DNA of 64,000 nucleotides from an uncultured Anaerolineales bacterium. Its GTDB lineage: Bacteria > Chloroflexota > Anaerolineae > B4-G1 > SLSP01. The stretch lies in the NCBI GenBank assembly GCA_964504195.1, contig CAZDDI010000010.1:22956-86955 (forward strand), given 5' to 3'. Position numbers and translations under genes: made by a program. The notes under the pieces are model-generated. The model was not told the origin of the DNA and searched no databases. It saw nothing but the letters and a program-made list of their open reading frames with translations. Positions 7,938 through 58,052 of this stretch are shown here, piece by piece (position 1 is the first letter of the stretch; each line of letters begins with the position of its first letter).

Positions 7938-8832
7938 TTATTGAGCCAATGCTGAGTCAAGAAAAAGTAGTATCTTCCTTTTGTACTCTGCTTCGTTCCC
8001 CACAATAGGATTGATATGAGGCACCCCCTCCACAATCCAAAGTTCCTTTATGCCATTCGCTGCCGCATACATCTGTTGCGCATGATGATGTAGGGGAAAG
8101 ATATTATCATCCGCGCTATGAATAATGAAAACCGGGCGGGGGCAACATGGTGGCTAAATCGTAACACGAGCTAACTTGTCCTATTTCAAACCCGGTTCTG
8201 AGCTCCGCCAAAGAGACAATGAGCGGGGCAAACGGCCATTTGGGAAATATTGAAAAAACCTCAAAACTATCATCAATTGCTTGCGAGAGGCTGCTGTAAC
8301 TGCTTTGAATAACGATGGCTTTCACACGGTCATCTGTGGCAGCAGCCCGAACTGCCGCAGCTGCACCCAATGAATGTCCCACAACTGCTATTTGCTCTAC
8401 TTCCGGCAACACAAGAGCATAATCTATGGTCGCTGCTACATCTAAGGCCTCACTATATCCGTAAGTCATTAGGTTGCCTTCGCTGTTGCCGTGACCTCGC
8501 AAATCAATCAGCAATACATGGTATCCGGCCTCAGATAAAAGACGTGCTTGCGGCAATAAGTATGTCCGATTAGCATGAATTCCATGTACCAGGACAATTG
8601 CATCGGGGCGTGTTCCGGCGATGTACCACCCTGATATTTTGAGACCATCAGCCGTTGTTAAAGTGATATCCTGGTAGGAGAGTCCAACAGGTATGCCAAT
8701 GTTTTGATTTCTTACTGGCGTAGTCAGATAAACTGCTTGAATGTACGAAACGCCCAGGGTTAGCAAGATAACAATTGAGCAGATGGCAGATAAAACGTAC
8801 AAGACCAGTTTCAAATGAAAACGGCGTAACAT
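7938..8832 (-). pseudogene. Alpha/beta-hydrolase-fold protein, membrane-anchored, broken by a frameshift near 8115-8125.
   Basis: The 238-aa ORF (8116..8832) has a transmembrane N-terminus and a GHSLGAAAA nucleophile elbow, but lacks the Asp/His region. The adjacent frame continues RPVFIIHSADDNIFPLHHHAQQMYAAANGIKELWIVEGVPHINPIVGNEAEYKRKILLFLDSALAQ*, the expected Asp and His part, ending at 7938. The break sits at a G-run (ccgggcgggggc). Confidence 0.7.
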
Positions 8833-9064
8833 ACAAGCAATTGCTCGCTGGTGCTTAGGCAGTTCCAGGATTTAAATCGTCCCAAAATCACCGGAATTCG
8901 TAGGGGAACAAGCAGTTTTTGGGATGATTATTTTCCTGGAATCGCCTTATCTTCAGTGACACTTATTTTGCGCCGCCTAACGCCAAATTTCATCGGGCGA
9001 AAAAGGCGAGCGCAGCTGAACACGGGGGAAGAGCAAGCCATTGTTGGGCATAATTCTCGTGAGA

Positions 9065-9727
9065 TTATACCCGCACCAAACTACCGCTTACGGCCTTTTG
9101 AATATTCCCCAAATATTCTATGTGTTCACCATTGACAATGATCCCATCCCCATCCGGGCAACCGTAAATCACCCGCTGATAGTTCTGTGAATATTCTTCT
9201 AATACATTCGTCGCAGCCTCCACGTCATTAAGATGCGGTAAAAACGCAAAATCCACCAATCCCAATGCGCTGCTATCGGTCATCTCCTCGCCTGTCAGGG
9301 GCGCATCGCCACATAAACGAGCCGTGCCGATCTCCGGTGTCATCAAGATCGCACCGGCACTTGTTCCAATCAATGTTCCTCCATTCGCTACATACTCTTG
9401 TAACGGGACGATCAAGCCTCTGACTCGTAACCAATAGAGAAAATGATACGTATTTCCCCCTGAGAGATGAATCGCATCGCACCTCAATAACGAATGGAAC
9501 ATGCTTGGTTCATAGTTCACATCAATCTCAAAATACACCGACAAATTGAGTCCTAGTGTTTCATAATATACTTGTTTTTGCTTAAACCAGATTCGTTCGG
9601 GATCACTTGATGATGGTATATAGCCGATTATTGGATTTTGTTTGCCTATCAGAGAGGCTAATCGGCGGTCAATCTTTGCATTTTCTGGGATCACTTGATC
9701 ACTATAGAGTACGAGTTTACGTATCAT
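9065..9727 (-). CDS. Peptidase family S51 (dipeptidase E-like).
   Basis: HLSGGNTYHF and GTSAGAILM match the PepE GGNTF and SAGA serine-nucleophile motifs. Confidence 0.7.
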   Translation of the reverse strand: MIRKLVLYSDQVIPENAKIDRRLASLIGKQNPIIGYIPSSSDPERIWFKQKQVYYETLGLNLSVYFEIDVNYEPSMFHSLLRCDAIHLSGGNTYHFLYWLRVRGLIVPLQEYVANGGTLIGTSAGAILMTPEIGTARLCGDAPLTGEEMTDSSALGLVDFAFLPHLNDVEAATNVLEEYSQNYQRVIYGCPDGDGIIVNGEHIEYLGNIQKAVSGSLVRV

Positions 9728-10074
9728 TTCAGTTCTTTCTCTTGAGGCATCCTAACATCTCGAAATGTTGGTAACGAAGTCTCATCATCTCCTGTCCTGA
9801 TGGCATATCATGTTTTGGTATATTTGACCCACTGGGTTGATTCGGAGATATAAGACACAGATTTTACGGATAAAACGGATTTTTCCGGTTCTTATCCGTA
9901 AAATCCAAGCAAATCCATGTCTTATCAGCATTCTGACGAACCGGTAGCAACTTGGATTAAGCTAGCCGTTTTTGCCTGAACGGCAATGGTCTAGCGCCTC
10001 ATTATACCCCAAACAGAACAGAGGGCGAATCAGCGGGAGAACTTGCAGACAACGTAGTTTGTCCCCCACAAGCT

Positions 10075-14090: not shown

Positions 14091-14229
14091 TCATAACACA
14101 TTTAAGGCCGTTTTTCAAGGGTATTTTCGGAAAATTTCGGGGAATTCTTGGGTTAGTTACAACAACTGAACAAATAGACACGAAACCCAATTTGTGCGAA
14201 ACCTGCCAGGTCTTAACTTAATGACATTG
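14091..14229 (+). mobile_element. Degenerate copy of the roughly 133-bp MITE-like element (family with TIR caatgtcatta). The right arm gcgaaacctgccaggtcttaacttaatgacattg is intact; the left end (caatcataaca) has decayed.
   Basis: Its right half is nearly identical to copies at 42515-42548 and 57778-57818. The internal segment cccaatttgtgcgaaacc is also shared. Confidence 0.55.
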
Positions 14230-14962
14230 GATGGTTACGACTTGCCACTCTCTGGGGTCGCCCAATCCAAAACACGCACCAGAGACATGCGGCAAGGGTC
14301 AACGACAGCAACGTATCAACGCGATAGGCCCCCCAGAGTGGAACAGGATCGGCGCGCAAAGTAGTCAACGCCGCCTCGCCTACCCAGTAAAGCGCGAGGG
14401 CTGCACCACCGCAACGGCCCAAGGCGACCGCCGCGCCAACCATGAGCAAGGCCCAACCCATGCCCAAGGTCGCCGTCGCATAGCGCGAAGCGAGCAGGCC
14501 ATAGAGATCGCGCGTCTCTGCGATCAGCCAGACGGGCGTTACCGCATCCTGCCCCCAGGCGCACCCCGCCGCAGCACAGCCCCACCAGGCTCCAGCAGCT
14601 GTCAGCAAGACCGCCGGGGTAAGCCAGGTCAGCAAACGGGCCAGGGGTAAGTGAACGCGGCGCACGAACCACATCGCCGCGAGCAAGCCACCCACGAAGG
14701 CGCTGCCTCCGTACAAACCGCCCACGCGCCCCAGCGCCAGAATCGCACCAGGATTCTGAGAGAAGTAGAGAGGATTGCCCAACACATAGCCCAGGCGACC
14801 CAAGAGGAGTGTGCTCGCAAGAAGCATCCATAGCAACGCCGGGATAGCGGCTCGTGAGACGCCCCAGCGCGGCGCGCGCCATATCAACCATGCTGCCCCC
14901 AGCAACACACCGAGGCTCAAACGCAGCGTATAAGGGTGAATCCAAAGTGAACCTATCCGCAT
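14213..14962 (-). CDS. lgt: Prolipoprotein diacylglyceryl transferase-like membrane protein.
   Basis: Polytopic membrane protein. GRLGYVLGNP and LGRVGGLYGGSAFVGGLL match the Lgt ARLGY and GGxxxHGG motifs. The last 10 codons, ASRNHPMSLS, are encoded by the MITE-like element. Confidence 0.5.
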   Translation of the reverse strand: MRIGSLWIHPYTLRLSLGVLLGAAWLIWRAPRWGVSRAAIPALLWMLLASTLLLGRLGYVLGNPLYFSQNPGAILALGRVGGLYGGSAFVGGLLAAMWFVRRVHLPLARLLTWLTPAVLLTAAGAWWGCAAAGCAWGQDAVTPVWLIAETRDLYGLLASRYATATLGMGWALLMVGAAVALGRCGGAALALYWVGEAALTTLRADPVPLWGAYRVDTLLSLTLAACLWCVFWIGRPQRVASRNHPMSLS

Positions 14963-29027: not shown

Positions 29028-29573
29028 ATGAGTACAAAATTTAGGTTTTGCAGTTTAATATGCATTATATTAGCCGTAACCTTAATAATACTTACTACAC
29101 CCAGTGTTAGTAGCGTTATGGCACAAGACCCGCCAACAGATCCACCACCACCAACGGCCATACTGCCAACAGCCATACCACCAACAACCGTGCCGCCGAC
29201 AGAACCGCCCACACCGGTGCCGCCAACAGCCATACCACCGACAGCTGTGCCGCCAACAGCCGTGCCGCCAACAGCCGTACCGCCGACAGCCGTACCGCCG
29301 ACAGCCGTGCCACCGACAGCCGTGCCACCGACAGCCGTGCCACCGACAGCCGTGCCACCAACAGCCGTGCCGACCACGCCAACCGAATCACCACCACCAC
29401 CACCAGCGCCCGCTGAGCCTACTGCGCCGGCAATTGCCCCGCAAGCAGCCGAGAATCATCGCTTACCTCAAACCGGCCTGCTTGAGGGATTCACGGTGAT
29501 TGGATTGGGACTGGCAATTATCATGCTGGCATTTGCGACCATGCGTCGGCATCGCACAAACAGCGAACAGTAA
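29028..29573 (+). CDS. LPXTG-motif cell-wall-anchored Pro/Thr-rich repeat protein, a likely sortase substrate.
   Basis: Signal peptide, a (PTAVP)n linker, then LPQTG followed by a hydrophobic segment and the basic tail RRHRTNSEQ. Confidence 0.8.
   Translation: MSTKFRFCSLICIILAVTLIILTTPSVSSVMAQDPPTDPPPPTAILPTAIPPTTVPPTEPPTPVPPTAIPPTAVPPTAVPPTAVPPTAVPPTAVPPTAVPPTAVPPTAVPPTAVPTTPTESPPPPPAPAEPTAPAIAPQAAENHRLPQTGLLEGFTVIGLGLAIIMLAFATMRRHRTNSEQ
29150..29390. repeat. 15-bp tandem repeat array of about 12 units encoding (PTAVP)n within the LPXTG protein gene.
   Basis: Units such as ccgccgacagccgtg / ccaccgacagccgtg repeat. The protein segment is PTAIPPTAVPPTAVPPTAVPPTAV... Confidence 0.85.
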
Positions 29574-39664: not shown

Positions 39665-40822
39665 ATGACCCATATTCTCATCGTGTATAAACAATTCCCT
39701 GGCCCTACGGTGAGTCACGCGGGGGGGGAATCCGTCTACAGGCTGATGCAGGCCCTCCACGCGCGCGGGCATACACTAACGCTGGTGGCACGCATCCACG
39801 AGACAGAACGCCCACAGTTACCAGCAGTCCAGACGCTTTGCGACCGCATCGTGACCGTGCCGCATCACCGCTCGCTGTCCGGCCCACGTCCGCTAGAGAT
39901 GGCGCGTAGCTATTGGCTACTGCGCCAGGCCACACGGCGAACGTTGCTTGAAACCCGACCCGATCTGCTCTATGTGGAATTTGCCCAAACCGGAGCCGTG
40001 CTACTGGGACTCAAAGGCGTCCCTACCGCCATCCGCGCGCATGACATCAACTGGTTCCTGATGGAGCAAGAAATCGCGCAGCACAGCGGCCTGGCACGCT
40101 GGCGTAGTCGGCTGTTGCGCACATTGTTCCTGTGGCTCGAACCCTGGCTCTACCGACAGTTCGATCTAGTCGCAGCTATCTCTGAAGGCGATCGCCGCCT
40201 GCTCGCGAAACGCTGTGCGCCTAAGCCCATCCTTCTGCTCCCCCTGGCACCGGCTTTTCAGCCTACCCCCGACATGGCCCCGGCTGTCGCCTCCGGCCCC
40301 AACGTACTCTTCGTAGGCGCGATGTCCCGTGCCTACAACGTCCAAGCCGTGACCTGGTTCCTTGATGACGTATGGCCCACGGTACTGGCGCAAGTTCCTG
40401 CCGCGCGTTGTTACATTGTCGGCGCGCAACCGCCGCCCAGCATCCAGTCCCGGCACGATGGCGCGCGGGTGTTCGTCACCGGTTTTGTGGACGACCTCGC
40501 CCCCTGGTACCAGGCCGCTGCTGTATGTGTGGCCCCCTTGTTGGTAGCGGGCGGATTGCTGCAAAAAGTGATTGATGCGCTAGGCATGGGCGTTCCGGTT
40601 GTAGCGACCAGTGCAAGCAATCACGGCGTCGGGGCGACGCCCGACGAGCACTTGTTGATCGCTGATGACCCGGCGACGTTTGCCGCAGCCGTAACGCGCC
40701 TGCTCAAAGACACGACGGCGCGGGAACAATTAGGCCGCGCCGGGCGTCTCTTTGTGGAAACACGCTATAATTTCGGCCCGGCAGTGGCGCGGTGGGAAGA
40801 AACCGTCAAGAATCTGGTATAA
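39665..40822 (+). CDS. GT4/GT1-family (GT-B fold) glycosyltransferase.
   Basis: The C-terminal domain pattern VTGFVDDLAPWYQAAAVCVAPLLVAGGLLQKVIDALGMGVPVVAT fits the EX7E-like region of GT4 enzymes. Confidence 0.7.
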   Translation: MTHILIVYKQFPGPTVSHAGGESVYRLMQALHARGHTLTLVARIHETERPQLPAVQTLCDRIVTVPHHRSLSGPRPLEMARSYWLLRQATRRTLLETRPDLLYVEFAQTGAVLLGLKGVPTAIRAHDINWFLMEQEIAQHSGLARWRSRLLRTLFLWLEPWLYRQFDLVAAISEGDRRLLAKRCAPKPILLLPLAPAFQPTPDMAPAVASGPNVLFVGAMSRAYNVQAVTWFLDDVWPTVLAQVPAARCYIVGAQPPPSIQSRHDGARVFVTGFVDDLAPWYQAAAVCVAPLLVAGGLLQKVIDALGMGVPVVATSASNHGVGATPDEHLLIADDPATFAAAVTRLLKDTTAREQLGRAGRLFVETRYNFGPAVARWEETVKNLV

Positions 40823-40856
40823 TGGAAGTAAAACACAATGCTATTAAATTTTGGAC

Positions 40857-40906
40857 GTAGACTTGGCAGGTTTCAAGACCTTGAGTTTAAAAAACGTCGT
40901 TATTCA
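40857..40906 (+). repeat. Fragment (left arm only) of the MITE-like element family, in the leader of LCP gene 1.
   Basis: gtagacttggcaggtttcaagaccttgagtttaaaaaacgtcgttattca matches 42433-42485 of the full copy. Confidence 0.55.
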
Positions 40907-40940
40907 TTTGATTAAGTAAAAGCTCTGAGGATGTGTAGCT

Positions 40941-42305
40941 ATGACATCAGTAAAACTAAGAGGCGCTCAGCGCAAGAATATCGTTCCGATGTTGTTAACG
41001 CTGGCCCTCCTGCTACTGCTTGTGGTGATTGCTGTGATGGCCGGATTACTCCTGCTCTCGCAGGTACGCGCTGCGCTTTTCGGCGACAGCTCCTTCCCCG
41101 GTCTGCCGGGCGGCACAGTCAGCCAAAACGTGGAGTACCGCTTCGGCAATCCGCTGCCGGTGTGGACAAGTGAAGATACGGTGACGGTATTGCTGCTCGG
41201 CATTGATCAGCGCCGTGATGAACCCGGCCCTTGGCGCACCGATACGATGATGCTCCTCACACTTGATCCTAAGACAATGCGCGCTGGCGTGCTCTCTATC
41301 CCCCGCGACCTCTGGGTCCCTATTCCGGGCTACGGCGACGGGCGCATCAACACGGCCCATGTACAGGGCGAACTCTATAACCACCCCGGCGGGGGCCCCG
41401 CCCTGGCCCGTGAAACAGTCGAGTACAATCTGGGCATCCCGATAAATTACCATGTGCGGGTCAATTTTGATGCTTTCGAGAAGCTGGTGGATATGATCGG
41501 CGGCATTGATATTTACGTTGAAGAAACTATCAATGATCCACTCTACCCGGATCACCACTACGGTTACGATCCGCTGTATATCGAAGCCGGCTGGCAACAC
41601 TTCAACGGGGAACTAGCGTTGAAATATGCGCGCACCCGTCACGGCAATAGCGACTTTGATCGCGCCCGCCGCCAGCAACAGGTGCTCCTCGCTGTGCTGG
41701 AGAGAGTGACTAGCTTGCAACTATTACCACAAATCGCAGGACGCTCCAGCGAAATCTACCAGATGTTCCAGGATTCAGTGGAGACCAATCTGGCGATGGA
41801 TCAGATTCTCGCCCTGGCAGGCGTCGCCATCAAGGTAGAGCGTCCCAACATCCGCTTCGCGGTCATTGATCGCCAGGCAACCCAAAACTGGGTGACGCCG
41901 CAGGGCGCACAGGTGTTGATCCCACTCCGCGAGGAAATTCGGCGGCTGCGCGATTACATTCTCTGGACCGACGGCGTCATTGCAGATGTACCACTCCAAC
42001 AGGCTCCGCCAGAAGCGGCCACGATAGCTGTGCTTAACGGCACATCGCGCGCGGGGCTGGCCGGTTCTACCGCCGCCTATCTACAAGGGCTGGATATTCC
42101 CGTGTCTGCTTATGCCAACGCCGACCGTGACTCTTACGGAGCATCGCAAATCATCCTCAACCGCGATACGCCTGTGCGTGCAGCCCAATTGCTCAATGTG
42201 CTGGGTTTACCGCCGACTGCGTTACTGCGCGGCAGCGAAGCCAACGCCGCTTATGATATCGTTATCATTCTGGGTGCGGATTACATCGGCCCGCCCGCGC
42301 CGTAG
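40941..42305 (+). CDS. LytR-CpsA-Psr (LCP) family cell-envelope phosphotransferase with a LytR_C-like C-terminal domain, paralog 1.
   Basis: N-terminal transmembrane segment. LLLGIDQRRDEPGPWRTDTMMLLTLDP...LSIPRDLWVPIPGYGDGRINTAH are LCP core motifs. Confidence 0.85.
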   Translation: MTSVKLRGAQRKNIVPMLLTLALLLLLVVIAVMAGLLLLSQVRAALFGDSSFPGLPGGTVSQNVEYRFGNPLPVWTSEDTVTVLLLGIDQRRDEPGPWRTDTMMLLTLDPKTMRAGVLSIPRDLWVPIPGYGDGRINTAHVQGELYNHPGGGPALARETVEYNLGIPINYHVRVNFDAFEKLVDMIGGIDIYVEETINDPLYPDHHYGYDPLYIEAGWQHFNGELALKYARTRHGNSDFDRARRQQQVLLAVLERVTSLQLLPQIAGRSSEIYQMFQDSVETNLAMDQILALAGVAIKVERPNIRFAVIDRQATQNWVTPQGAQVLIPLREEIRRLRDYILWTDGVIADVPLQQAPPEAATIAVLNGTSRAGLAGSTAAYLQGLDIPVSAYANADRDSYGASQIILNRDTPVRAAQLLNVLGLPPTALLRGSEANAAYDIVIILGADYIGPPAP

Positions 42306-42414
42306 CAACTGCTACACCGGTGGACTTTTCCACCGCAGAGAATGCAAAAGAAAGAAGCCGCTGTGATTTTTGCACCCTTCGTAGTGAAAAGTCTCCTTGT
42401 GGTATAATCCTATT

Positions 42415-42548
42415 CAATGTCATTACGTTTAGGACATAGACTTGGCAGGTTTCAAAGCCTTGAGTTTACAAGAAATCGTTATTCACCGGTAAAATCCCAC
42501 CCAATCCAATTTGGGCGAAACCTGCCAGGTCTTAACTTAATGACATTG
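42415..42548 (+). mobile_element. Complete MITE-like element of 134 bp. The TIR pair is caatgtcatta / taatgacattg. It is flanked by the 9-bp direct repeat aatcctatt (42406-42414 and 42550-42558). Internally a 16-bp arm pair can form a long hairpin: agacttggcaggtttc ... gaaacctgccaggtct.
   Basis: Seen directly. It sits 25 bp upstream of the LCP paralog 2 start codon. Confidence 0.7.
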
Positions 42549-42572
42549 CAATCCTATTGAGTGTAATCAGCT

Positions 42573-43910
42573 ATGACGAATAGAGCAACTGCCAATAAAT
42601 TGATCCGCTTCGGTATGATACTAATTTACTTGATCAGCACCGTAAGCGCCAGCACACTGGTATTTTTCCAAGTGCGCGAACTCGTATCTGCCTCGGAAAT
42701 TCTACCGGACATCACGCTCGGCAACGAAGCTATAGAAAGCCCAAACATCGTTTACGAAGAAGGCCAACCCTTGCCTATCTGGACCGGCACCGAGCGCCTC
42801 ACGGTGTTAGTATTGGGCATAGATCAACGTGAGACAGAGGAAGGCCCTTGGCGTACAGACACGATGATGTTGCTCACCCTCGACCCGGTCACGTTGCAGG
42901 CGGGGGTGCTCTCGATTCCGCGCGACCTTTGGGTACGCATCCCCGGCTACACCGAGAACCGCATCAATACCGCGCACTTTATCGGCGATGCCTACAACCA
43001 TCCCGGCAGCGGCACGGCGCTCGCTATCGAGACGGTCGAATACAATCTTGGCATCTCCATTGATTACTATGTGCGCTTCAATTTCAATGGGTTTGTGAAT
43101 GTCATTAACGAAATTGGCGGCATTGAAATCTATGTCGAAGAACGCGTTGATGATACCAAATATCCTACACCTGATCTTGGCACAGAGCATCTCATCATCG
43201 AGCCGGGCTGGCACCATTTCGATGGCGAAATGGCCCTCAAGTATGCGCGCACGCGCTATTCCAGCCGGGGCGACTTCGACCGCGCACGGCGACAACAGCA
43301 AGTAATGTCTGCTGTGCTGGAGCAAGTGACCAAGCCCGGCAACCTGCCACGTCTGGCGAGCCGCGCGCCCACGCTCTATGCCACGCTCTCCGATGCAGTG
43401 CAGGTAGGGCCTGCTCTGCGGATGGATCAGATGATCGCTTTGGCTGCGCTGGCCGTTAAAGTGGATCGTTCACAGATTCGCTTTGGCGTCATTGACGAGA
43501 ACTGCACCTTACCACGCGAGACACCCGATCATCAGCAGATTCTGGTGCCCTTGCGCGATGAAATCCGCGCCGTACGTGATTATGTCTTTGGGGTGAATGG
43601 GCCTGAGACCGAGGAAGGCACAACGATCACGCTCTCTGTGCTGAACGGGACAGGCCGCGCGGGATTGGCTGGCACAACCCGCGATTATCTGGTGGCGCAG
43701 GGCTTTTATGTAGGTACGCACAGCAACGCCGACCGGCAAGATTATGAGAATTCGCTCATCATTCTGAACCGCCCGCATCCCACTGTGGCGCTACGCCTAT
43801 TGGAACTGCTAGGATTACCACAATCGGCGGTAGTCAACGGTGATAACCGCAGTGCGGTATACGACATCGTCATCATTCTGGGCGCAGATTACACCGGCCC
43901 GCCGGAATAG
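42573..43910 (+). CDS. LCP family protein, paralog 2.
   Basis: LVLGIDQRETEEGPWRTDTMMLLTLDP...LSIPRDLWVRIPGYTENRINTAH. About 55% identical to paralog 1. Confidence 0.85.
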   Translation: MTNRATANKLIRFGMILIYLISTVSASTLVFFQVRELVSASEILPDITLGNEAIESPNIVYEEGQPLPIWTGTERLTVLVLGIDQRETEEGPWRTDTMMLLTLDPVTLQAGVLSIPRDLWVRIPGYTENRINTAHFIGDAYNHPGSGTALAIETVEYNLGISIDYYVRFNFNGFVNVINEIGGIEIYVEERVDDTKYPTPDLGTEHLIIEPGWHHFDGEMALKYARTRYSSRGDFDRARRQQQVMSAVLEQVTKPGNLPRLASRAPTLYATLSDAVQVGPALRMDQMIALAALAVKVDRSQIRFGVIDENCTLPRETPDHQQILVPLRDEIRAVRDYVFGVNGPETEEGTTITLSVLNGTGRAGLAGTTRDYLVAQGFYVGTHSNADRQDYENSLIILNRPHPTVALRLLELLGLPQSAVVNGDNRSAVYDIVIILGADYTGPPE

Positions 43911-43997
43911 ACCGTATATTCGAGTTAGCTCAACCCAAAGCGCGCCTGATTGCATACCGCATCAGGCGCGCTTTTTTCGTACATCATGCTTCACACT

Positions 43998-45806
43998 TCA
44001 TTCGCGCAACGGTTGCATGATGATATAGTTGAATCCGTTCATAGGGATATGTTCCACAATCCCGTAATGCTGCCCGATGGTCGCCAGCACCGGCCAGGGG
44101 TAGAATTGCGCGCGCATGATGACCAAATCAAATGCCTGCTCGCGGAGCACGCCTTCGATTTCGGTAGTATCCAGCAGGCCGTTGTTGTAAAGGTTGAGCA
44201 GCTGCGTGGGATTGGTGACGACGGGCTTGCCCGCCAGCAGGGTGAACATGGCCTCTTCGCTGAAGACCGGCCCTTCGGCGGCGCGGACGTAGGCCATGAT
44301 GCGCTCCCCGGCCTCGTAATCGGCAGGCGACATCAGATGCCCCACTTGCGTGTAGCCTACCGCGTCATAGTAAGGGTAGTTGGCGTAGGATGATAGCCCC
44401 TGCACGCCCAACGCCCGCGCGACCGGCCCCCACACCGGGCCGTCGGTGGGTAGGTGGAGCATCCGTGTGGATTGCCACATCAACAGCAACGGCACCAGCG
44501 CGGCCAGCGCGAGCGCCCGGCGCGGCGGCTGCTCCGCCGCCCACAGCCGCAGTTTGCCCAGCGCGAATCCCATCAGAATCAGCGCCGCTGCAACGGAGGT
44601 GTTCCAGTACGCCTCGCCCGCACCCCATTTGCCGGACATCAGGCCCGTGCCGATGGCAAAGGCAAACCACAGCGAGTACACGGAAATTTTAGCGAAGTAG
44701 ACTTCGTAAGCTACATATCCGGTCGCCAAGAGCAGGATGACGGTGTGGATTTTGAACCAGGAGCGGGTGAGCGCGATGAGCTGCTGCATATCGTAGGCGT
44801 TGACGTTGGCCGCGATGATATTGGTCCACCAGTGGCCGTTAGTGATGAGGTTGATAGCGCCAAACGAGAGCAGGAACACCGCCGCAAAGCCCAGTCCCAA
44901 CATAATGGCACGTTTGGGGTGGCAGAGGAAAAGGTAGGTGAAAATTGCCAGCGCGGTGAAGATCGCCAGCTGTTTAGTGTAGGCGGCGATGAGCAGCAGC
45001 GCCAGGCCGATGAGAGCGTTACGCCAACCCTTGCGTGTTTCCAGCGCGCCTGCCCCGGCGATACACAGCACCGCGAGCGTCTCGAACAGCACCATCGTCA
45101 TGTGTTGCCGGCTCAGTGGGCCGACGTGGTAGACGAAATTGGAGGCCAGGAAGCCCAGGCCGCTCATCAGCGGGATGTAGCGCCCGCCCACGCGCCGCCG
45201 CACCGCCCAGGCGATAGCAGCGGCGTTGACCAGCGTCGCTATGAACGAAAGGACGCGCCCGGCCAGCAAAGTCTGCCCGAAGATGGGGAACAGTGGGATC
45301 ATCAGCCAGTGAAAGAAGGGCATATAATTGGAGGAGTAAAAGGGGTAGGCGGCGTTATCGAGATACGGCCATTCGCCCCGCGCGAAGAGGATGGCGGCAT
45401 AGAGCTCGAAGCCCTCACCCTGATCATAATCGTAGGGCCAGCGGAAGAGGTCTACGGCGTAGGTGACATAGACGGCAACATAAGCCAGGAACGCCACGAG
45501 CGCGAACGCGGCCAGCACCAGCCCGGCAATGCGTAAGGCGCGTTCCAGCGTATCACGGGGCGTGGGGAGCGCGGATTGCACGCCGGGTGGTAGCGGCGTT
45601 GTCTCCATCGCGGGCCGGTCGCCGCCCCACAGCACCAGCGGAACGCCCGCCAGTGCTACGAGCAGCCCCGCCACGAGCGCGGTCAGCTCCACCGGTCCGA
45701 TGCCACTCCACGCGCCTGCGCCCAGGCGGCCAGCGATGAGAATCAGCGCATCCCCACCCAGACCGAGAATAAGTAAAACCATACCGAGATGTCGTTTGGA
45801 AATCAT
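43998..45806 (-). CDS. Large polytopic membrane protein, possibly a GT-C-like glycosyltransferase or DUF2079-like.
   Basis: More than twelve predicted transmembrane helices. An acidic YDYDQGEGF loop follows the first helices. Confidence 0.45.
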   Translation of the reverse strand: MISKRHLGMVLLILGLGGDALILIAGRLGAGAWSGIGPVELTALVAGLLVALAGVPLVLWGGDRPAMETTPLPPGVQSALPTPRDTLERALRIAGLVLAAFALVAFLAYVAVYVTYAVDLFRWPYDYDQGEGFELYAAILFARGEWPYLDNAAYPFYSSNYMPFFHWLMIPLFPIFGQTLLAGRVLSFIATLVNAAAIAWAVRRRVGGRYIPLMSGLGFLASNFVYHVGPLSRQHMTMVLFETLAVLCIAGAGALETRKGWRNALIGLALLLIAAYTKQLAIFTALAIFTYLFLCHPKRAIMLGLGFAAVFLLSFGAINLITNGHWWTNIIAANVNAYDMQQLIALTRSWFKIHTVILLLATGYVAYEVYFAKISVYSLWFAFAIGTGLMSGKWGAGEAYWNTSVAAALILMGFALGKLRLWAAEQPPRRALALAALVPLLLMWQSTRMLHLPTDGPVWGPVARALGVQGLSSYANYPYYDAVGYTQVGHLMSPADYEAGERIMAYVRAAEGPVFSEEAMFTLLAGKPVVTNPTQLLNLYNNGLLDTTEIEGVLREQAFDLVIMRAQFYPWPVLATIGQHYGIVEHIPMNGFNYIIMQPLRE

Positions 45807-45888
45807 GATTTACCTGTTTATGTTATTTGTACAATAGCAACGCTTCGTCCTACAAGGCGTGAAACGTGAAGAAATTTCTGGTCACGTC

Positions 45889-46716
45889 TCACGTCAGCAT
45901 CACCAGCACGCCGAAGCGCCCGGTGCGGCCCTGCTCGGCGCGATGGGAGTACCATTCATCGGTACGGGCGGCGGTGTTGATGCCGGAAGCTACGATGTGG
46001 GCGACGCCTGCTGCGGCCAGCTGCGCCGCCGCCGCGCCCGGCAAATCGAGCTGCCACGCACCGTTGGTCTGCTGCGCAACCTGCGCGCCTTGTGGCAGGG
46101 TCGCCAGCACCGCCTGTACTACGTCCACGCCGACTTCGTAATGCTCCGGGCCGATCGCCGGACCGATGCCCGCCCACAAATCTTCCGGGCGCGAGCCGAA
46201 TGCCTCGCCCAACGCCTGCACGGTCGCCGGTACGATGCCCGCCGCCACCCCACGCCAGCCCGCATGCGCCAGGGCCGCGACGTGCCGCGCCCGGTCGTAG
46301 AACAACACCGGTACACAATCGGCGAAGCGCAGGAGCAAGGCTACGCCCGGCTCATCCGTCATCAGTGCATCGCTCTCCGGGATGATCTGCCCGCCATCGG
46401 CACGGGTCACGTGGGTCACGCGCTGCCCATGCACCTGATGCGGGCTGACCACCTGCTCCGGCGTGAGATTCCACAACGCCCGCACCCGGCGCAGGTTCTC
46501 CTGCACCGCTGCGGGCGCATCCCCAACCGTGCCGCCCAAATTGAGCGACGCAAACGGTAATTCGCTCACGCCGCCCAACCGGGTCAACACTACATGCCGG
46601 AACTCCGGTGGGGGTGACGCAAAAGCGTACCCCACCAGAGTCCCGGCTTGAAATCGGTGAATCACTTCTTCCCGAATAGCGCCTTCAGCACCAGCGCGAA
46701 GCAGCCGGCAATCCAC
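45889..46716 (-). CDS. pgeF: YfiH/PgeF-family (DUF152, Cu-oxidase_4) purine nucleoside phosphorylase / polyphenol-oxidase-like protein.
   Basis: HQVHGQRVTHV, ADALMTDEPGVALLLRFADCVPVLFYD and HAGWRGVAAGI match the family's conserved His/Cys/His triad regions. Confidence 0.8.
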   Translation of the reverse strand: MDCRLLRAGAEGAIREEVIHRFQAGTLVGYAFASPPPEFRHVVLTRLGGVSELPFASLNLGGTVGDAPAAVQENLRRVRALWNLTPEQVVSPHQVHGQRVTHVTRADGGQIIPESDALMTDEPGVALLLRFADCVPVLFYDRARHVAALAHAGWRGVAAGIVPATVQALGEAFGSRPEDLWAGIGPAIGPEHYEVGVDVVQAVLATLPQGAQVAQQTNGAWQLDLPGAAAAQLAAAGVAHIVASGINTAARTDEWYSHRAEQGRTGRFGVLVMLT

Positions 46717-47159
46717 GCGGACAGGAAGATACCCGCCAACGCGATCTTCTGCTCGTCCATAATGGGACGCACGGTAGCGCCTTCGGCAGTGACTTCAATG
46801 AAGGCAATCGGACGGGCCATTCCACCGCCGCCACCACCACCGCCCATGACGGGCGCGTCATCATAATCTTCGCAGTCGCAGTCACAATCACAGTCGCATG
46901 CATCCTCGAAGCCTTCGGTATGACAATCGCATTCGCAGTCATCGTCGCAAGTCTCGTCACAATCACAGAAATCGTCGTAATCACAGTCGCAACCGCCCTC
47001 TGCCCCGCTACCAAACCCGACCCCGAACCCATAAGCGATCTCAGCAACCGGGATAATCATGCGGCCTTCGAACATCTGTGGCTCACCGAAGACGTTATCC
47101 ACGTTGAACATTTCGCTCAAATCCGCGAACTCATCTAACATCACCATTACTTCTTCCAT
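46662..47159 (-). CDS. YtfJ/GerW-family (PF09579-like) protein with an inserted Cys/Asp-rich low-complexity segment and a C-terminal transmembrane helix.
   Basis: FGEPQMFEGRMIIPVAEIAYGFGVGFGSGAEGG ... GGGGGGGGMARPIAFIEVTAEGATVRPI resembles YtfJ. The intervening block is CDCDYDDFCDCDETCDDDCECDCHTEGFEDACDCDCDCDCEDYDD. Confidence 0.55.
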   Translation of the reverse strand: MEEVMVMLDEFADLSEMFNVDNVFGEPQMFEGRMIIPVAEIAYGFGVGFGSGAEGGCDCDYDDFCDCDETCDDDCECDCHTEGFEDACDCDCDCDCEDYDDAPVMGGGGGGGGMARPIAFIEVTAEGATVRPIMDEQKIALAGIFLSAWIAGCFALVLKALFGKK

Positions 47160-47202
47160 CTTAGTTCCTCCTTGGGGAAATCGGTAAATCTAAAAATCTC
47201 GT

Positions 47203-47502
47203 TTATCTGCGCGCCAGACGCGCCAGTACGATGACAACAAACGTAGCCGCAGCGACGATGGCGCCCACTGCGGCCATCTGGCTCAGCGCTGCCTGTGTGG
47301 CATCGGGGAGGGCGTGCCAGCGCGCGCCCTCTGGCCCTTGCGCTACTACTGAAACCGGGCGCATTCGCACCTGGCTAAAGTAACCCGTGTCGGGCATTCC
47401 ACCCTGCTGAGACATGACCAACACTGCAGGCAATAACCGAAATTTACCCGCCTCAATCGGTGTGGCGGATACAATGCGGGTACGTTGATCAGATTTGTGC
47501 AT
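47203..47502 (-). CDS. Small (99 aa) hypothetical protein with a C-terminal transmembrane helix. Starts at MHKSDQ; a longer 126-aa ORF is also possible.
   Basis: An RBS CCAGGAGG lies 6 nt upstream of the ATG at 47502. Its leader shares the motif agatttaccgatttc with the leader of the downstream YtfJ-like gene. Confidence 0.5.
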   Translation of the reverse strand: MHKSDQRTRIVSATPIEAGKFRLLPAVLVMSQQGGMPDTGYFSQVRMRPVSVVAQGPEGARWHALPDATQAALSQMAAVGAIVAAATFVVIVLARLARR

Positions 47503-47680
47503 GTGATACCTCCTGGAAAATCGGTAAATCTCAAAACTTATGTAGCCGCGCGTAACCTTGGGCGCGCTAACAAATCTTTTCACTTTGTGTACTTTATTGT
47601 GAAGCCAATCTTAGTAGCCCTTATTATAGACGGCCTGGCTTTAAGAGCAAGCCGCATTTGGATAGCCCCGGCTGGTTTTC

Positions 47681-47735
47681 TGAAACCTGCCAGGGCTTCA
47701 GGTTTCAACTGACTTGCCAGCAAACCCACCTTGCA
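47681..47735. repeat. Palindromic fragment related to the MITE family arms.
   Basis: tgaaacctgccagggcttcaggtttca is a perfect hairpin. The adjacent gacttgccagc resembles the MITE left arm. It sits in a divergent intergenic region. Confidence 0.4.
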
Positions 47736-47781
47736 GTATCATTGAATTGAAGCTCCGGCCATACCGGATAGTTGAAGAGGA

Positions 47782-49734
47782 ATGATGCAACATAACCGCG
47801 ATGTATATCTACAAGAAATGCCTTTGGAAGATGCTTGGGCGCGATTGCGCGTGGCGCTGGCTGAGGCCGGACGCGATGCACCGCTGGCGGGGGAGGAAGT
47901 ACTACTGGCTGAGGCGCTCGGTCGCGTGACCGCCGCCCCGGTGTGGGCGTTGCTCTCATCGCCGCACTATCACGCCTGCGCAATGGACGGTTACGCCGTG
48001 CGCGCTGAAGACACGCACGGGGCGAGCGATGCACATCCCGCACGGTTGGCGCTGGAGTCGCAGGCTGCGCCGGTGGATACGGGCGACCCGCTGCCGTCCT
48101 GGGCTGATGCGGTGTTGATGGTGGAGCACGTTCAACAAGCCGGCGAGCACATCCTGCTGCGCGCGCCGGCGGCGCGCTGGCAGCACGTCCGCGCGGTAGG
48201 CGAAGATATCGTCGCAACGGAGCTGCTGTTGCCCGCCAATCACCTGCTGCGCCCGGTGGATTTGGGCGCGGCGGCGGGCGCGGGTCACGCGCAGCTGCTG
48301 GTACGCCGCAAGCCCCGCGTCGCCATCATCCCCACCGGCGACGAGCTCATCCCCCCCGGTCAACCGCCCCAGCCGGGCGAGATTGTGGAGTACAACAGCC
48401 TGATCCTCTCCGCGCAGGTGCGGGCGTGGGGCGGCGAACCGCTCTGCTGGCCCATCGTGCGCGATGACCTGGAAGCGCTGGTGGCAGCGGTAGCCGAAGC
48501 TGCGACCCAAGCCGATCTGGTGCTGGTGAATGCCGGCTCCTCTGCCGGACGCGGCGATTTCACCTCGCGCATCGTCGAGCAGTTGGGGGAGTTGCTCGTG
48601 CATGGCATTAATGTGCGCCCCGGCCACCCGGTCGTCATCGGGATGATAGGGACAGAGCGTGTGCCGCTCATCGGCGTACCGGGCTATCCGGTCTCCGCCA
48701 CGCTCACCGCCGAGCTGTTCGTCGAGCCGCTGCTGCGCCACTGGTTGGGGCTGCCCGCGCCGCAACGGCCCACGCTCGAAGCACACATCACCCGCAAACT
48801 ACTCTCGCCCGCTGGCGATGAGGAGCTGGTGCGTGTGGTGGTGGGGCGGGTAGGCGAACGCACAATTGCCGCGCCGCTCTCGCGGGGCGCGGGCACGCTC
48901 ACCTCGCTGGTGCGCGCCGATGGGCTGGTGCGTATCCCGCGCTTCTTGGAGGGCGTCAACGCAGGCGAACGGGTGACGGTTCACCTGTACCGTGCGCCGT
49001 ATGAGATCGAGCACACGCTGCTAGCTATCGGCAGCCACGATTTGCTGCTCGATCTGCTGGCGCAGACGTTGGCGGAGGGCGCAGATCCGCGCCGCCTGGT
49101 GAGCGCGCACGCGGGCAGCCTGGGCGGACTCACGGCCCTGGCGCGCGGCGAGGCGCATCTGGCCGGTTCGCATTTGCTCGATCCGGAAACCGGCGAGTAT
49201 AACCTATCTTACATCCGCCGGTATCTGCCGGAGACGCCGGTGCGCGTGGTGACGCTCACCCGCCGGGAGCAAGGGTTCATCGTGGCGCCCGGCAACCCGC
49301 AGAGGATTACTGGCCTCGCAGATTTGACCCGCCCGGACGTGGTCTACGTCAACCGGCAACGTGGCGCAGGCACGCGCGTGCTGCTCGATTACGGGCTGGC
49401 GCAAGCTGGCATCACGGCAGAACAGGTGCAAGGCTACACCCGTGAAGAAGTGACGCATCTGGCGGTGGCAGCGGCGGTGGCGACCGGCCTGGCCGATTGT
49501 GGGCTAGGCATTCGCGGCGCGGCGGCGGCGTTAGGGCTGGATTTCGTGCCCTATACCTGGGAGCGTTACGATTTAATTATCCCGCGCGCGTATTGGGAGA
49601 GCAAGCTGCTCGCGCCATTGCGTGATGTACTACATTCGCCGGGCTTCCGGCAGGCGGCTGCGGCGCTGCCCGGCTACGATCCAACGGACATGGGCGACGA
49701 GATTGTTCCGAGACTCAGCAGATCACATATTTAA
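47782..49734 (+). CDS. moeA: Molybdopterin molybdotransferase MoeA fused to a C-terminal periplasmic-binding-protein-like (molybdate/tungstate-binding-type) domain.
   Basis: MoeA N-terminal and MoCF-binding domains (LVLVNAGSSAGRGDFT). About 220 extra C-terminal residues have a PBP-like pattern (LAIGSHDLLLDLL...VVYVNRQRGAGTR...). Confidence 0.7.
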   Translation: MMQHNRDVYLQEMPLEDAWARLRVALAEAGRDAPLAGEEVLLAEALGRVTAAPVWALLSSPHYHACAMDGYAVRAEDTHGASDAHPARLALESQAAPVDTGDPLPSWADAVLMVEHVQQAGEHILLRAPAARWQHVRAVGEDIVATELLLPANHLLRPVDLGAAAGAGHAQLLVRRKPRVAIIPTGDELIPPGQPPQPGEIVEYNSLILSAQVRAWGGEPLCWPIVRDDLEALVAAVAEAATQADLVLVNAGSSAGRGDFTSRIVEQLGELLVHGINVRPGHPVVIGMIGTERVPLIGVPGYPVSATLTAELFVEPLLRHWLGLPAPQRPTLEAHITRKLLSPAGDEELVRVVVGRVGERTIAAPLSRGAGTLTSLVRADGLVRIPRFLEGVNAGERVTVHLYRAPYEIEHTLLAIGSHDLLLDLLAQTLAEGADPRRLVSAHAGSLGGLTALARGEAHLAGSHLLDPETGEYNLSYIRRYLPETPVRVVTLTRREQGFIVAPGNPQRITGLADLTRPDVVYVNRQRGAGTRVLLDYGLAQAGITAEQVQGYTREEVTHLAVAAAVATGLADCGLGIRGAAAALGLDFVPYTWERYDLIIPRAYWESKLLAPLRDVLHSPGFRQAAAALPGYDPTDMGDEIVPRLSRSHI

Positions 49735-55337: not shown

Positions 55338-57755
55338 TTATTCCTGTTTGGTGGAACGCAAGGGCAACAAAACATGGAACGTGCTGCCTGGACAGGTAGC
55401 CTCATCATAGCCGGGGCTTTCTACCCACAGATGCCCGCCATGCGCCTCGGTGATGCCTTTGGCTATTGCCAGCCCCAACCCAGGCCCGCCGCCTTTGAAT
55501 TTAGTCTTGCCGGATGAGTGCAGGGCCACCTCGCCCGTCTGGTAAAATTTGGTGAAGATAAGTTCCTGAAAATCGGGATCAATGCCGATACCGGTATCCC
55601 GCACCACAATCTCTACGCCCTCCGCCGCAAGACGCTCTTCCCCGACAGGCACAGCCCGCCCGGTCACGGTAATGCTGCCACCATCCGGCGTGTACTTGAT
55701 CGCGTTAATCAGCAATTGCTGGAAAACCTTCTTGAGCTCATTGCTGTCGGCTTCGAGCGTAGGAAGCGCGGGTAAATCAAACACGAGTGTAAGGTCGCGA
55801 TCAGCCAACGTGTCTTTGAAGCCCTCATGGACATGCTGCAATACAGTCGCAAGTTTAACAGTCTGCATGTGCAGCTGCAAGGCGCGACTGTCAATCTTCG
55901 CCATATCAAGCATGGTATTGATGATTTCATGCAAGCGCACCGCCCCGTCATAGATGCCACTGACCATCTGCTGGTGCATAGGGCTGGCCTCGATGATGGC
56001 ATCCTTGAGAAGGATTTGGCTGTAACCGCGTAGCGTAGTAAGTGGGGTGCGCAGCTCGTGCGCGGCGACATTGATGAAATCACTCTTGGTGCGGTCGAGG
56101 CGTTCAAGCTGGGCATAGGCACGGGTAACATTGGCGTAGAGGCGGGCATTTTCCAACGCGGCCGCGGTTTGTCCGGCAAAAGCCGTCGTCAGCTCGGCCT
56201 CAGCCGGGATATAAGGGTCCGGCGACTCACGGGTAAGGGAAAGCATCCCGATCACCTCTTCCTGATGTAGCAACGGCACGCCCAACCACGAACGCGCACG
56301 CGGCAGATTATCCACATAAATCCAGCTCGCCCACGCTTCTACATCGGCAATGAGCAAGGGCTGGCGCGTGCGATAGATCTGCCAAAAGAGATCGTTGTCA
56401 TCGTCAATGGCGATGCGAATTGTTTGGAAGTTTGCCCCAGGGGGAAAACCGCGCGCGGCGACAATTTCCAAGTCTTCGTCGGAACGCAACATGACCGAGC
56501 CGCGATCAAAGGGAACAAGCGAATGCAAGTAATCGAGCAGTAGATCGAGGATTTTAGCCAAGTCGAGGGTTTGGGAAAGAGCCTGGCCGACCTCAGAAAG
56601 CGTCTCTGCCAGTACACGCCGCGAGCGTTCACTTTCGTAAGCGGAGGCATTCTGGATGGCGATAGCCACTTGCGAGGCCAATGATTGAAAAACGACCATA
56701 TCCTGCTCGCTAAAGACGCCCGTCTGCGTACTTTGAATGTCCAGCACCCCCAATAACGTTCCGGTCGCTTCGAGTGGTAACACCAGCTCAGACTGAGTGT
56801 CCGGAATGATGTCTACTTTGACATAACGTTGATCACGGGCGATGTTATTGACGAGAGCGGGCCGGCGATACTGGGCAACCCAGCCGATCAGCCCCTCTTC
56901 GCCTACCTTCATGCTGAACCCGCGCTGACAAAGCGCACGGCCCACCTCGCCGGTGCCAGCGCGGGACACAACGGCCTCGCCGGTCTCGTCGAGCAGAAAA
57001 ATACCAACGTAGTAATAACCATACTGCTTCTTGATCAACTCGACCACCTGGTTAAGCAGCACATCGAGGTTCAAAATCGAAGAAATACTCTGCCCCACAC
57101 CAATGGTAGTTTCGAGAGCGCGACGCGCACCTTGTGTAGATTGCAACGTAGTAACGAGCTCCTGCTGGCGCAGGTCATCGCTTAGGCGTAACCGCACCTG
57201 TTGACGCATCGCGCGCACACGGTTGAGATGTACAACAATACTTAAGGCAAAACCAAAAGCCAATGCAAAACCAAAGTGTATCCAGGCCGGATCAGCTGGG
57301 GAATTGTATGCAACGATGAACCACAATACAACAGAGGCTAGCAACACTGGTAATAACCATTGTGTAGAGAGGAAAAACAGGCTCAGGCCAATAATAAATA
57401 AAATAAAGTTAGTGGTCTGAAGTGGGTTCTGGTCAAAATAGATATGAAGGAAGATATTGACTAAAACCAAACCGGAAGCGCCGAGCGCAGTGGGGTAGAC
57501 TCTGGAAAGTGACACTTTACCCTTACGGATGCGGGTATAAATCAAGAACAACCCCAGCGCAGCAAGAATAGCAGCGACGAACATCACATTTCTGATGACG
57601 CCTTCGAGTAAGACAATATGCGCAAAGGCCAGCAGGGCCATGACCACACCCAGGCCCAGCGTGGCGGAGCGCATATCCTCGCGCATCATTACTGTCAGCG
57701 CCTCACGGAGAGCACGCTCACTAATGTGCGTAATTTTGGAATAGTCGTCGCTCAT
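55338..57755 (-). CDS. Membrane sensor histidine kinase with tandem GAF domains.
   Basis: Six to seven N-terminal transmembrane helices, then two GAF-like domains, HisKA (AAHELRTPLTTL) and HATPase_c (GGPGLGLAIAKGITEAHGG). Confidence 0.85.
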   Translation of the reverse strand: MSDDYSKITHISERALREALTVMMREDMRSATLGLGVVMALLAFAHIVLLEGVIRNVMFVAAILAALGLFLIYTRIRKGKVSLSRVYPTALGASGLVLVNIFLHIYFDQNPLQTTNFILFIIGLSLFFLSTQWLLPVLLASVVLWFIVAYNSPADPAWIHFGFALAFGFALSIVVHLNRVRAMRQQVRLRLSDDLRQQELVTTLQSTQGARRALETTIGVGQSISSILNLDVLLNQVVELIKKQYGYYYVGIFLLDETGEAVVSRAGTGEVGRALCQRGFSMKVGEEGLIGWVAQYRRPALVNNIARDQRYVKVDIIPDTQSELVLPLEATGTLLGVLDIQSTQTGVFSEQDMVVFQSLASQVAIAIQNASAYESERSRRVLAETLSEVGQALSQTLDLAKILDLLLDYLHSLVPFDRGSVMLRSDEDLEIVAARGFPPGANFQTIRIAIDDDNDLFWQIYRTRQPLLIADVEAWASWIYVDNLPRARSWLGVPLLHQEEVIGMLSLTRESPDPYIPAEAELTTAFAGQTAAALENARLYANVTRAYAQLERLDRTKSDFINVAAHELRTPLTTLRGYSQILLKDAIIEASPMHQQMVSGIYDGAVRLHEIINTMLDMAKIDSRALQLHMQTVKLATVLQHVHEGFKDTLADRDLTLVFDLPALPTLEADSNELKKVFQQLLINAIKYTPDGGSITVTGRAVPVGEERLAAEGVEIVVRDTGIGIDPDFQELIFTKFYQTGEVALHSSGKTKFKGGGPGLGLAIAKGITEAHGGHLWVESPGYDEATCPGSTFHVLLPLRSTKQE

Positions 57756-57776
57756 CGTAGTGACCTACCTGAACAC

Positions 57777-57910
57777 GCAATGTCATTAAGTTAAGACCTG
57801 GTAGGTTTCGCTAAAATTGTGTTTGACCATATTTTCCAGGTGAACAGGGATGGTTATAGCGTTAAGCCCCTCAACCCTGCCAGTTCTATGTGCTAAACTA
57901 AATGCCATTG
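57777..57910 (-). mobile_element. Complete MITE-like element, same family as 42415..42548 but in the opposite orientation. It is flanked by the perfect 9-bp direct repeat cctgaacac (57768-57776 and 57911-57919).
   Basis: The TIR caatgtcatta is at 57778-57788. The other end is aaatgccattg at 57900-57910. The internal arm is gcgaaacctaccaggtcttaacttaatgacattg in reverse complement. It sits 22 bp upstream of the GAF kinase start. Confidence 0.7.
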
Positions 57911-58052
57911 CCTGAACACTTGGATAATCCGGATTCAAGAACCTGTCGAAACCAGCACCGGGTCTCAACAGACTCGTGGTGTAGCGAAACAGCTTCTATA
58001 GCATAGCACAAGAATGGCGTTGAGCAAGTATATTCGCGCCCAAGCGCCCTTT

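Follow-up and report, generated by a model that had tools for sequence, protein, structure and literature searches.

A family of short non-coding elements with IS4-family (IS1675-type) ends in an uncultured Anaerolineales bacterium

The repeated element that lies, among other places, at 42415..42548 of a 64-kb stretch of DNA from an uncultured Anaerolineales bacterium (this whole stretch is referred to as the window) is best explained as a member of a MITE family which is mobilised in trans by an IS1675-like transposase of the IS4 family, a reading to which we assign a probability of about 0.88. It is regarded as a MITE and not as a conserved regulatory RNA because its target-site duplications are specific for each locus, the flanks of its copies are unrelated and its ends are identical to those of IS4-family elements. 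According to the proposed mechanism, the outermost 18 bp, CAATGTCATTAAGTTAAG, would serve at both ends as the binding and cleavage site of an IS1675-type IS4-family DDE transposase, which, encoded elsewhere, would excise the element and paste it into a new target. Staggered cuts 10 bp (occasionally 9 bp) apart in this target would, upon repair, give rise to the copy-specific direct repeats. By analogy with characterised IS4-family members, transposition is presumed to be of the cut-and-paste type, and we infer from the sequences that this host has, or once had, a cognate IS1675-like element.

Two full-length copies are present in the window. The first, a 134-bp member of subfamily A on the plus strand (42415..42548; nhmmer profile E 3.8e-41), has its left arm at 42415-42453 and its right arm at 42517-42548; it starts with CAATGTCATTA and ends with TAATGACATTG, and its longer imperfect left and right arms read CAATGTCATTACGTTTAGGACATAGACTTGGCAGGTTTC and GAAACCTGCCAGGTCTTAACTTAATGACATTG, respectively. 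The second, a 133-bp member of subfamily B on the minus strand (57778..57910; nhmmer E 2.5e-33), is ~74% identical to the first. The profile used for these searches was made from 15 family members. The termini caatgtcatta...taatgacattg are present as originally predicted; the terminal inverted repeat had however been given as 11 bp, and this length was too short, since it consists of an 18-bp core inside imperfect arms of ~32-39 bp, with 29 arm pairs kept across the alignment of 15 copies. The element is non-coding, shows no similarity to transposases and, with 133-134 bp, is too short to encode one.

In addition to these two copies the window contains fragments. A left-half copy of ~73 nt (profile positions 1-73) is found on the plus strand at 40836..40908 (nhmmer E 2e-13) and is 83% identical to the 42.4-kb copy, and a solo right end of 49 nt (profile positions 86-134) occupies 14181..14229, also on the plus strand (nhmmer E 3e-13). 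The truncated 40.8-kb copy has an 8-nt direct repeat, AAGTAAAA, on both sides, which was not counted as a target-site duplication because it overlaps with the MITE-internal GGTAAAA motif. No homology to the element and no left arm were detectable in 14091-14180. A 32-nt right-end probe matched three sites in the window with at most one mismatch, with none expected from shuffled sequences.

A further site, on the plus strand at 47663..47698 (AGCCCCGGCTGGTTTTCTGAAACCTGCCAGGGCTT), is probably what is left, after decay, of an arm-to-arm form of the element that had lost its interior; the evidence for this is weak. Its outer termini are absent, it has a 13-mer and nothing more in common with the full element, and the nhmmer search of the window found no match to the family profile there at E<=1. 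There is, on the other hand, a match to the central part of a 72-bp mini-element from a metagenome (L005:4894-4965) at 30 of 35 positions, with a score of 43 that none of 300 shuffles equalled (maximum 25). Of the five copies that the original prediction had listed, the two full-length ones and the 40.8-kb left half are thus real, whereas the 14-kb copy is reduced to its right 49 nt and the 47.68-kb copy to a probable remnant.

Several other features of the window may be recorded here. An ORF of 650 aa at 47782-49734 encodes a MoeA protein (MoeA_N, MoCF_biosynth, MoeA_C) fused to a C-terminal PBP_like domain of the periplasmic-binding type. At 29120-29401 a unit of 15 bp is repeated about 13 times or more (e.g. 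GCCGCCAACAGCCGTGCC...), presumably encoding a five-residue protein repeat. The segments 6150-6873 and 7029-7746 (repeat families D3-D5), arranged in tandem ~876 bp apart, are 79-95% identical and probably represent a recent tandem gene duplication. Finally, the GC content of 8001-10000 is 0.44-0.46 as compared to 0.57 for the window, and this region could be foreign DNA.

To retrieve the family, an exact 24-mer from the right end was scanned over metagenome and genome contigs. The JGI metagenome contigs (Ga0334882 to Ga0334886) gave 18 stretches with this 24-mer, and the genome contigs a single partial match, in the Anaerolineae MAG OZ241372.1 (L001). As retrieval was by an exact right-end 24-mer, the conservation of the right end is inflated and the copy counts are lower bounds. 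In BLAST comparisons of the retrieved loci with the window the match was limited to the element and never included the flanks. After loci found in several samples had been counted once, at least 14 non-redundant copies at unrelated loci remained in the JGI metagenome contigs. The sequence around the retrieved loci contained further copies; based on these and on the 4-5 copies or fragments in the 64-kb window, a density of roughly one copy or fragment per 15-25 kb may be estimated. The alignment of 15 full-length copies over 134 columns gave pairwise identities of 69-94% (median 84%) and two subfamilies that are distinguished by their interior, with the 57.8-kb copy grouping with L008 and L014:2485-2618. 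A blastn search of plasmids with the consensus yielded no match, and a literature search on MITEs in Chloroflexi returned no description of such a family.

Shorter and unrelated forms with the same ends also exist outside the window. A fragment was found at L003:5520-5568, and L014:2302-2445 is a 144-bp element with an unrelated interior and the same 18-bp ends, which lies 39 bp from the MITE at L014:2485-2618; each of the two has its own 9/10 duplication. The 72-bp mini-element at L005:4894-4965, the same locus as L006:9803-9874, consists of the two arms only and is flanked by ATGTAACATC and ATGTAACACC, i.e. by a 9/10 duplication ATGTAACAYC. As this mini-element has a duplication of its own, ~35 bp per end would seem to be enough for mobilisation.

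Some metagenome contigs terminate within or next to the element (L021:1-28, L007:84-217, L009:1494-1585), and many matches to IS1675-like sequences in viral contigs lie 50-130 nt from the contig ends. The element thus acts as an assembly breakpoint in metagenomes.

For the analysis of the target-site duplications, the 10 bp abutting each terminus were compared in 17 non-redundant copies. The two flanks agreed at 9 or more of 10 positions in 10/17 copies and at 8 or more in 12/17, and four duplications were perfect (AATTCGGGTT, TTTTCTGCTC, GTATTTCACC and GCGGCGGAAT). When left and right flanks of different copies were paired as a null, the mean agreement was 2.8/10 and 0.4% of the pairs reached 8/10 or more. 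The duplicated sequence is different at every locus, and the 150-bp flanks of different copies show no cross-match. The flanking repeats are therefore copy-specific and do not belong to a conserved unit, as had been predicted.

Both full-length window copies show 9/10 identity in a 10-bp register. The 42.4-kb copy is enclosed by TAATCCTATT (42405..42414) and CAATCCTATT (42549..42558), the 57.8-kb copy by CCTGAACACG (57768..57777) and CCTGAACACT (57911..57920). In each case the mismatch adjoins one terminus, which explains the earlier reading of 9 bp with an extra 'c'. Indeed, the 9-bp repeats aatcctatt and cctgaacac are exactly present, but the duplication of the family is 10 bp and only occasionally 9 bp; the 9-bp register fits better for the copy in L007.

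The terminal 18 nt, inverted at both ends of the element, recur without a difference at the two ends of full-length IS4-family elements. A scan of viral and prophage contigs with the 18-mer CAATGTCATTAAGTTWAG gave 58 stretches, in three of which (L042, L043 and L080) inverted 18-mer pairs lie 1605-1653 bp apart. Between the ends L043 contains one intact ORF of 435 aa, which in L042 is split into pieces of 315 and 120 aa. The transposase of the L043-type element matches the NCBIfam IS4 family model NF033592 (164 bits, cut-off 115) and Pfam DDE_Tnp_1 (E 8e-30), and YHLRWEIETSFRELK in its translation represents the Y(2)R(3)E(6)K motif, which is a signature of the IS4 family (PMC2266710). A related transposase of 452 aa with the same ends is present in L028; as it is only 44.5% identical to that of L043, the 18-bp end is conserved across a deep lineage. 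Using tblastn against plasmids, an "IS4-like element IS1675 family transposase" of Lactococcus lactis with 41.6% identity was found. The Lactococcus IS1675 in plasmid p229A (L083 207-1810) measures 1604 bp, carries the exact 18-mer at both ends and is flanked by the 10-bp duplication GAGTATACTC; other full-length and short elements with the same ends have duplications of 9 or 10 bp.

Short deletion derivatives are known from these elements as well. Derivatives of the L043-type IS with a length of 210 bp show 9-bp duplications in Firmicutes. MITE-like derivatives of IS1675-like elements of 210-215 bp were seen at L032:5648-5857, L054:8601-8810, L059:1882-2091 and L066:1002-1216 and 1450-1664, in low-GC (Firmicutes-like) prophage or viral contigs and with 9-10-bp duplications; the two in L066 form a tandem pair with identical flanks.

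Published end signatures agree with this assignment. The IS4 subgroup is characterised by the ends -AATR--------WTW and a duplication of 10-13 bp, the IS231 subgroup by CAT-------AA--TAA and 10-12 bp (PMC2266710 Table 1), and the ends of the element fit the former at 7/7 and the latter at 7/8 positions. We would thus classify the element, at family level, as derived from an IS4-family IS of the IS1675 type. Mobilisation in trans by an IS4/IS1-like element had been proposed; the IS4 part of this proposal was correct, whereas an IS1-family origin was rejected, because the elements bounded by these ends have one ORF only, of the IS4-family DDE type, and no IS1 model was among the NCBIfam matches. 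IS1 ends, which begin with GGT..., also do not match the CAATG... of the element. REP/BIME sequences, as defined in PMC3733652, are RAYT-mobilised palindromes of 20-40 bp with GTAG/CGTC heads and without target duplication; an identity with these was ruled out by the length of 134 bp, the 10-bp duplications and the CAATG ends.

Full-length IS with the same 18-bp ends are thus represented by L042, L043, L080 and IS1675, but the window and ~170 kb of related Chloroflexota contigs showed neither a transposase nor a complete element bounded by these ends. In detail, when two IS4-family transposases were used as tblastn queries, neither the window nor any of the Chloroflexota loci yielded a match below E=1, which agrees with the earlier statement that the window lacks a matching transposase. 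No transposase was found near the solo ends in L003 and L018, where a full-length IS was sought, and the relatives of the L028 transposase obtained in a protein search came from Paenibacillus and other Firmicutes, with no Chloroflexota copy among them. The link to IS1675 consequently rests on other phyla, mostly Firmicutes. The sub-terminal arm AAGACCTGGCAGGTTTC occurs in none of the full-length IS seen, and the extended arm TTAAGTTAAGACCTGGYAGG had 0 matches in viral contigs.

The gene context within the window is as follows. The 42.4-kb copy ends 24 nt 5' of the ATG of LCP paralog 2 (42573-43910), the 40.8-kb half copy lies 32 nt 5' of LCP paralog 1 (40941-42305), and the 57.8-kb copy lies 22 nt 5' of the ATG (57755) of a GAF histidine kinase (55338-57755, minus strand). 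All three are oriented alike with respect to the gene that follows (n=3), and for the two full-length copies the distances agree with the ~22-25 bp that had been predicted. Next to the LCP-side copies lie a glycosyltransferase gene and, in tandem, two LytR-CpsA-Psr (LCP) genes, whose products share 52% protein identity, while the 57.8-kb copy is flanked by the GAF histidine kinase and a gene of the amino-acid-kinase family. An LCP protein of the window is also present on ENA and Logan metagenome contigs. The closest homologues of the GAF histidine kinase are 55-62% identical, not syntenic and without the element; those that are named are labelled Anaerolineae or Thermoflexales MAGs.

The solo right end at 14 kb enters a coding region. 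The terminal 17 nt of the element contribute the stop and the final 5 codons (PMSLS) to an Lgt-like ORF on the minus strand (14213-14962; Pfam LGT). It had been claimed that the element provides the stop and the last 10 codons, which is right for the stop but doubles the number of codons. The Pfam LGT domain stops at residue 232/249, before the element-derived C-terminus, and the 18-bp end contains TAA in two of three frames. A minus-strand ORF at L003:8417-9019 enters the terminus of the copy L003:8295-8428 by 12 nt and stops there, and its ending resembles that of the Lgt-like gene in the window.

Upstream of both LCP-side copies an extended -10-like motif, TGGTATAAT, is found, which has only two occurrences in the 64-kb window (40815-40823 and 42400-42408); two matches were equalled in 1 of 100 shuffles. 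The match at 42400-42408 lies 6 nt 5' of the 42.4-kb copy and its TATAAT is overlapped by the left target-site duplication, the match at 40815-40823 lies 12 nt 5' of the 40.8-kb half copy. The glycosyltransferase stop codon also overlaps with the latter match.

This arrangement raises the question whether the 40.8-kb half copy was inherited together with a tandem duplication of the LCP genes, or arose by gene conversion from the 42.4-kb copy, an explanation that would apply to the LCP pair only and that we consider unlikely. Both LCP genes are preceded by TGGTATAAT and then by the element in the same orientation, and the sequence around both ATGs is similar (AGCTATGAC), as would be expected from co-duplication. 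However, the proteins are 52% identical while the element halves are 83% identical, a value that falls inside the 69-94% range between independent copies, and the distance from TATAAT to the element is 12 nt in one case and 6 nt in the other, with unrelated intervening sequence. As the elements are more alike than the genes and lie at different distances from TGGTATAAT, we favour independent insertions at the two LCP leaders over co-duplication; gene conversion may nevertheless have taken place.

A second possibility is that the element is now a functional cis-regulatory leader, transcribed from TGGTATAAT, whose hairpin acts on the LCP and kinase mRNAs at the level of stability, termination or translation, and that the copies are kept by selection; it is an addition to a MITE origin and not an alternative to it, and we regard it as very improbable. 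The common orientation of the three upstream copies in the window and their distance of 22-32 nt from a start codon could hint at selection (n=3), and both TGGTATAAT matches in the 64 kb lie directly 5' of a copy. The hairpin of the 42.4-kb copy is strong (-49.8 kcal/mol, z -7.2 against shuffles), as predicted, but that of the 57.8-kb copy, called the older one, is no better than that of shuffled sequences (z -1.7). RNAalifold recovers the pairing of the arms, with a covariation term of +0.49 and compensatory changes in 0 of 29 arm pairs; substitutions in the arms break pairs and are never compensatory. An Rfam search over 40000-48500 gave no match at E<=1. Consensus scans for promoters and terminators inside and around the copies found nothing above chance, and the suggestion that the element itself supplies a promoter was not confirmed, as no promoter-like or terminator-like site lies within it. 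Across the metagenome loci, copies are located after stop codons, between convergent genes and 5' of genes, in both orientations (crude ORF calls), and consequently neither the proposed link to leaders of cell-envelope genes nor the uniform orientation holds for the wider family.

A structured regulatory RNA (riboswitch, leader or sRNA) was thus rejected as the identity of the element, given that there is no Rfam match, that no arm changes occur on both sides and that position and orientation vary. The preference of the original prediction for a non-autonomous transposon over a regulatory RNA is upheld by the unrelated flanks and IS4-family ends together with the missing Rfam match and covariation.

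Although MITEs arise by internal deletion of an IS and fragments are known (14181-14229, 40836-40908, L003:5520-5568), it is hardly conceivable that the short copies are full-length IS copies which each decayed in situ by internal deletion, since 15 copies at unrelated loci have one 134-bp interior and identical deletion boundaries, an outcome not to be expected of independent deletions, every copy is flanked by an intact duplication of its own, and the family has diversified into subfamilies.

The mobile, non-autonomous family that we favour can be compared with several known systems. IS1675 and the IS1675-like elements of Firmicutes have the same 18 bp at both ends, a similar target duplication of 9-10 bp, and have likewise spawned short deletion derivatives of 210-215 bp. 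In contrast to the non-coding element of 134 bp, they are 1.6 kb long and encode a DDE/YREK transposase; the arms of the element beyond the 18-bp core (…AAGACCTGGCAGGTTTC) match no full-length IS1675-like element seen, and its host belongs to the high-GC Chloroflexota instead of the Firmicutes. In E. coli IS4 (insG), with the ends TAATGCCAGTCAGTTAAG and the end signature xAATGxCxxTxAGTTAAG, 13-14 of 20 positions match the ends of the element, whereas InsG is only ~20% identical to the transposases with the exact 18-mer. The duplication of IS4 is 12 bp in MG1655, about one helical turn, within an IS4 range of 10-13 bp, and the duplication of 10 bp, rarely 9 bp, of the element is inside the IS4-family range of about one helical turn (8-13 bp).

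IS231 prefers the target GGG(N)5CCC, a preference that is not evident in the duplications of the element, and the third base of the ends is A in the element as opposed to T in the IS231 signature. The MIC231 or IS231 cassettes of the Bacillus cereus group are non-autonomous units with IS231 ends that are mobilised in trans (refs 2-3 in PMC2266710). MIC231 and the element have IS4-family ends, movement in trans and ~10-bp duplications in common; MIC231 is however kilobase-sized and carries passenger genes, neither of which applies to the element.

The general appearance is that of the classical bacterial MITEs. Correia elements (Neisseria), RUP (pneumococcus), ERIC and Nezha (cyanobacteria) are likewise small, non-coding and intergenic, occur in many copies and have inverted ends that form hairpins, and such MITEs sometimes extend or truncate neighbouring ORFs. 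They differ in that they derive from other parental IS families and have other duplication lengths, e.g. TA for Correia and RUP, and a similarity in sequence to the element would not be expected.

For the organism, the insertions 5' of two LCP genes and a histidine kinase gene most likely reflect tolerance of insertion in short intergenic DNA. If transcription starts from TGGTATAAT, it would carry the element as a structured 5' leader, and a regulatory effect on the LCP and histidine-kinase genes is possible. We consider it rather unlikely that two wider claims hold jointly. The first is that an IS1675-like lineage with an invariant 18-bp end was horizontally acquired, is active in hosts from Firmicutes to Chloroflexota and needs no more than ~35 bp per arm; the second is that the copies close to TGGTATAAT and to the GAF kinase now serve, after co-option, as structured 5' leaders that control genes of the cell envelope.

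The MITE family is newly seen in Anaerolineae-type Chloroflexota; its mechanism is ordinary and this kind of selfish DNA is well known, so that the general concept of MITE function is unchanged and the taxonomic and annotation value is modest. With respect to annotation, the element rewrites the C-terminus of an Lgt-like protein and could pass for a conserved regulatory motif. The activity of IS4-family elements of the IS1675 type would be extended to uncultured Anaerolineae, and the natural series of the 134-bp element, the 72-bp mini-element and the unrelated 144-bp element with the same ends would delimit the sequence that is needed for mobilisation.
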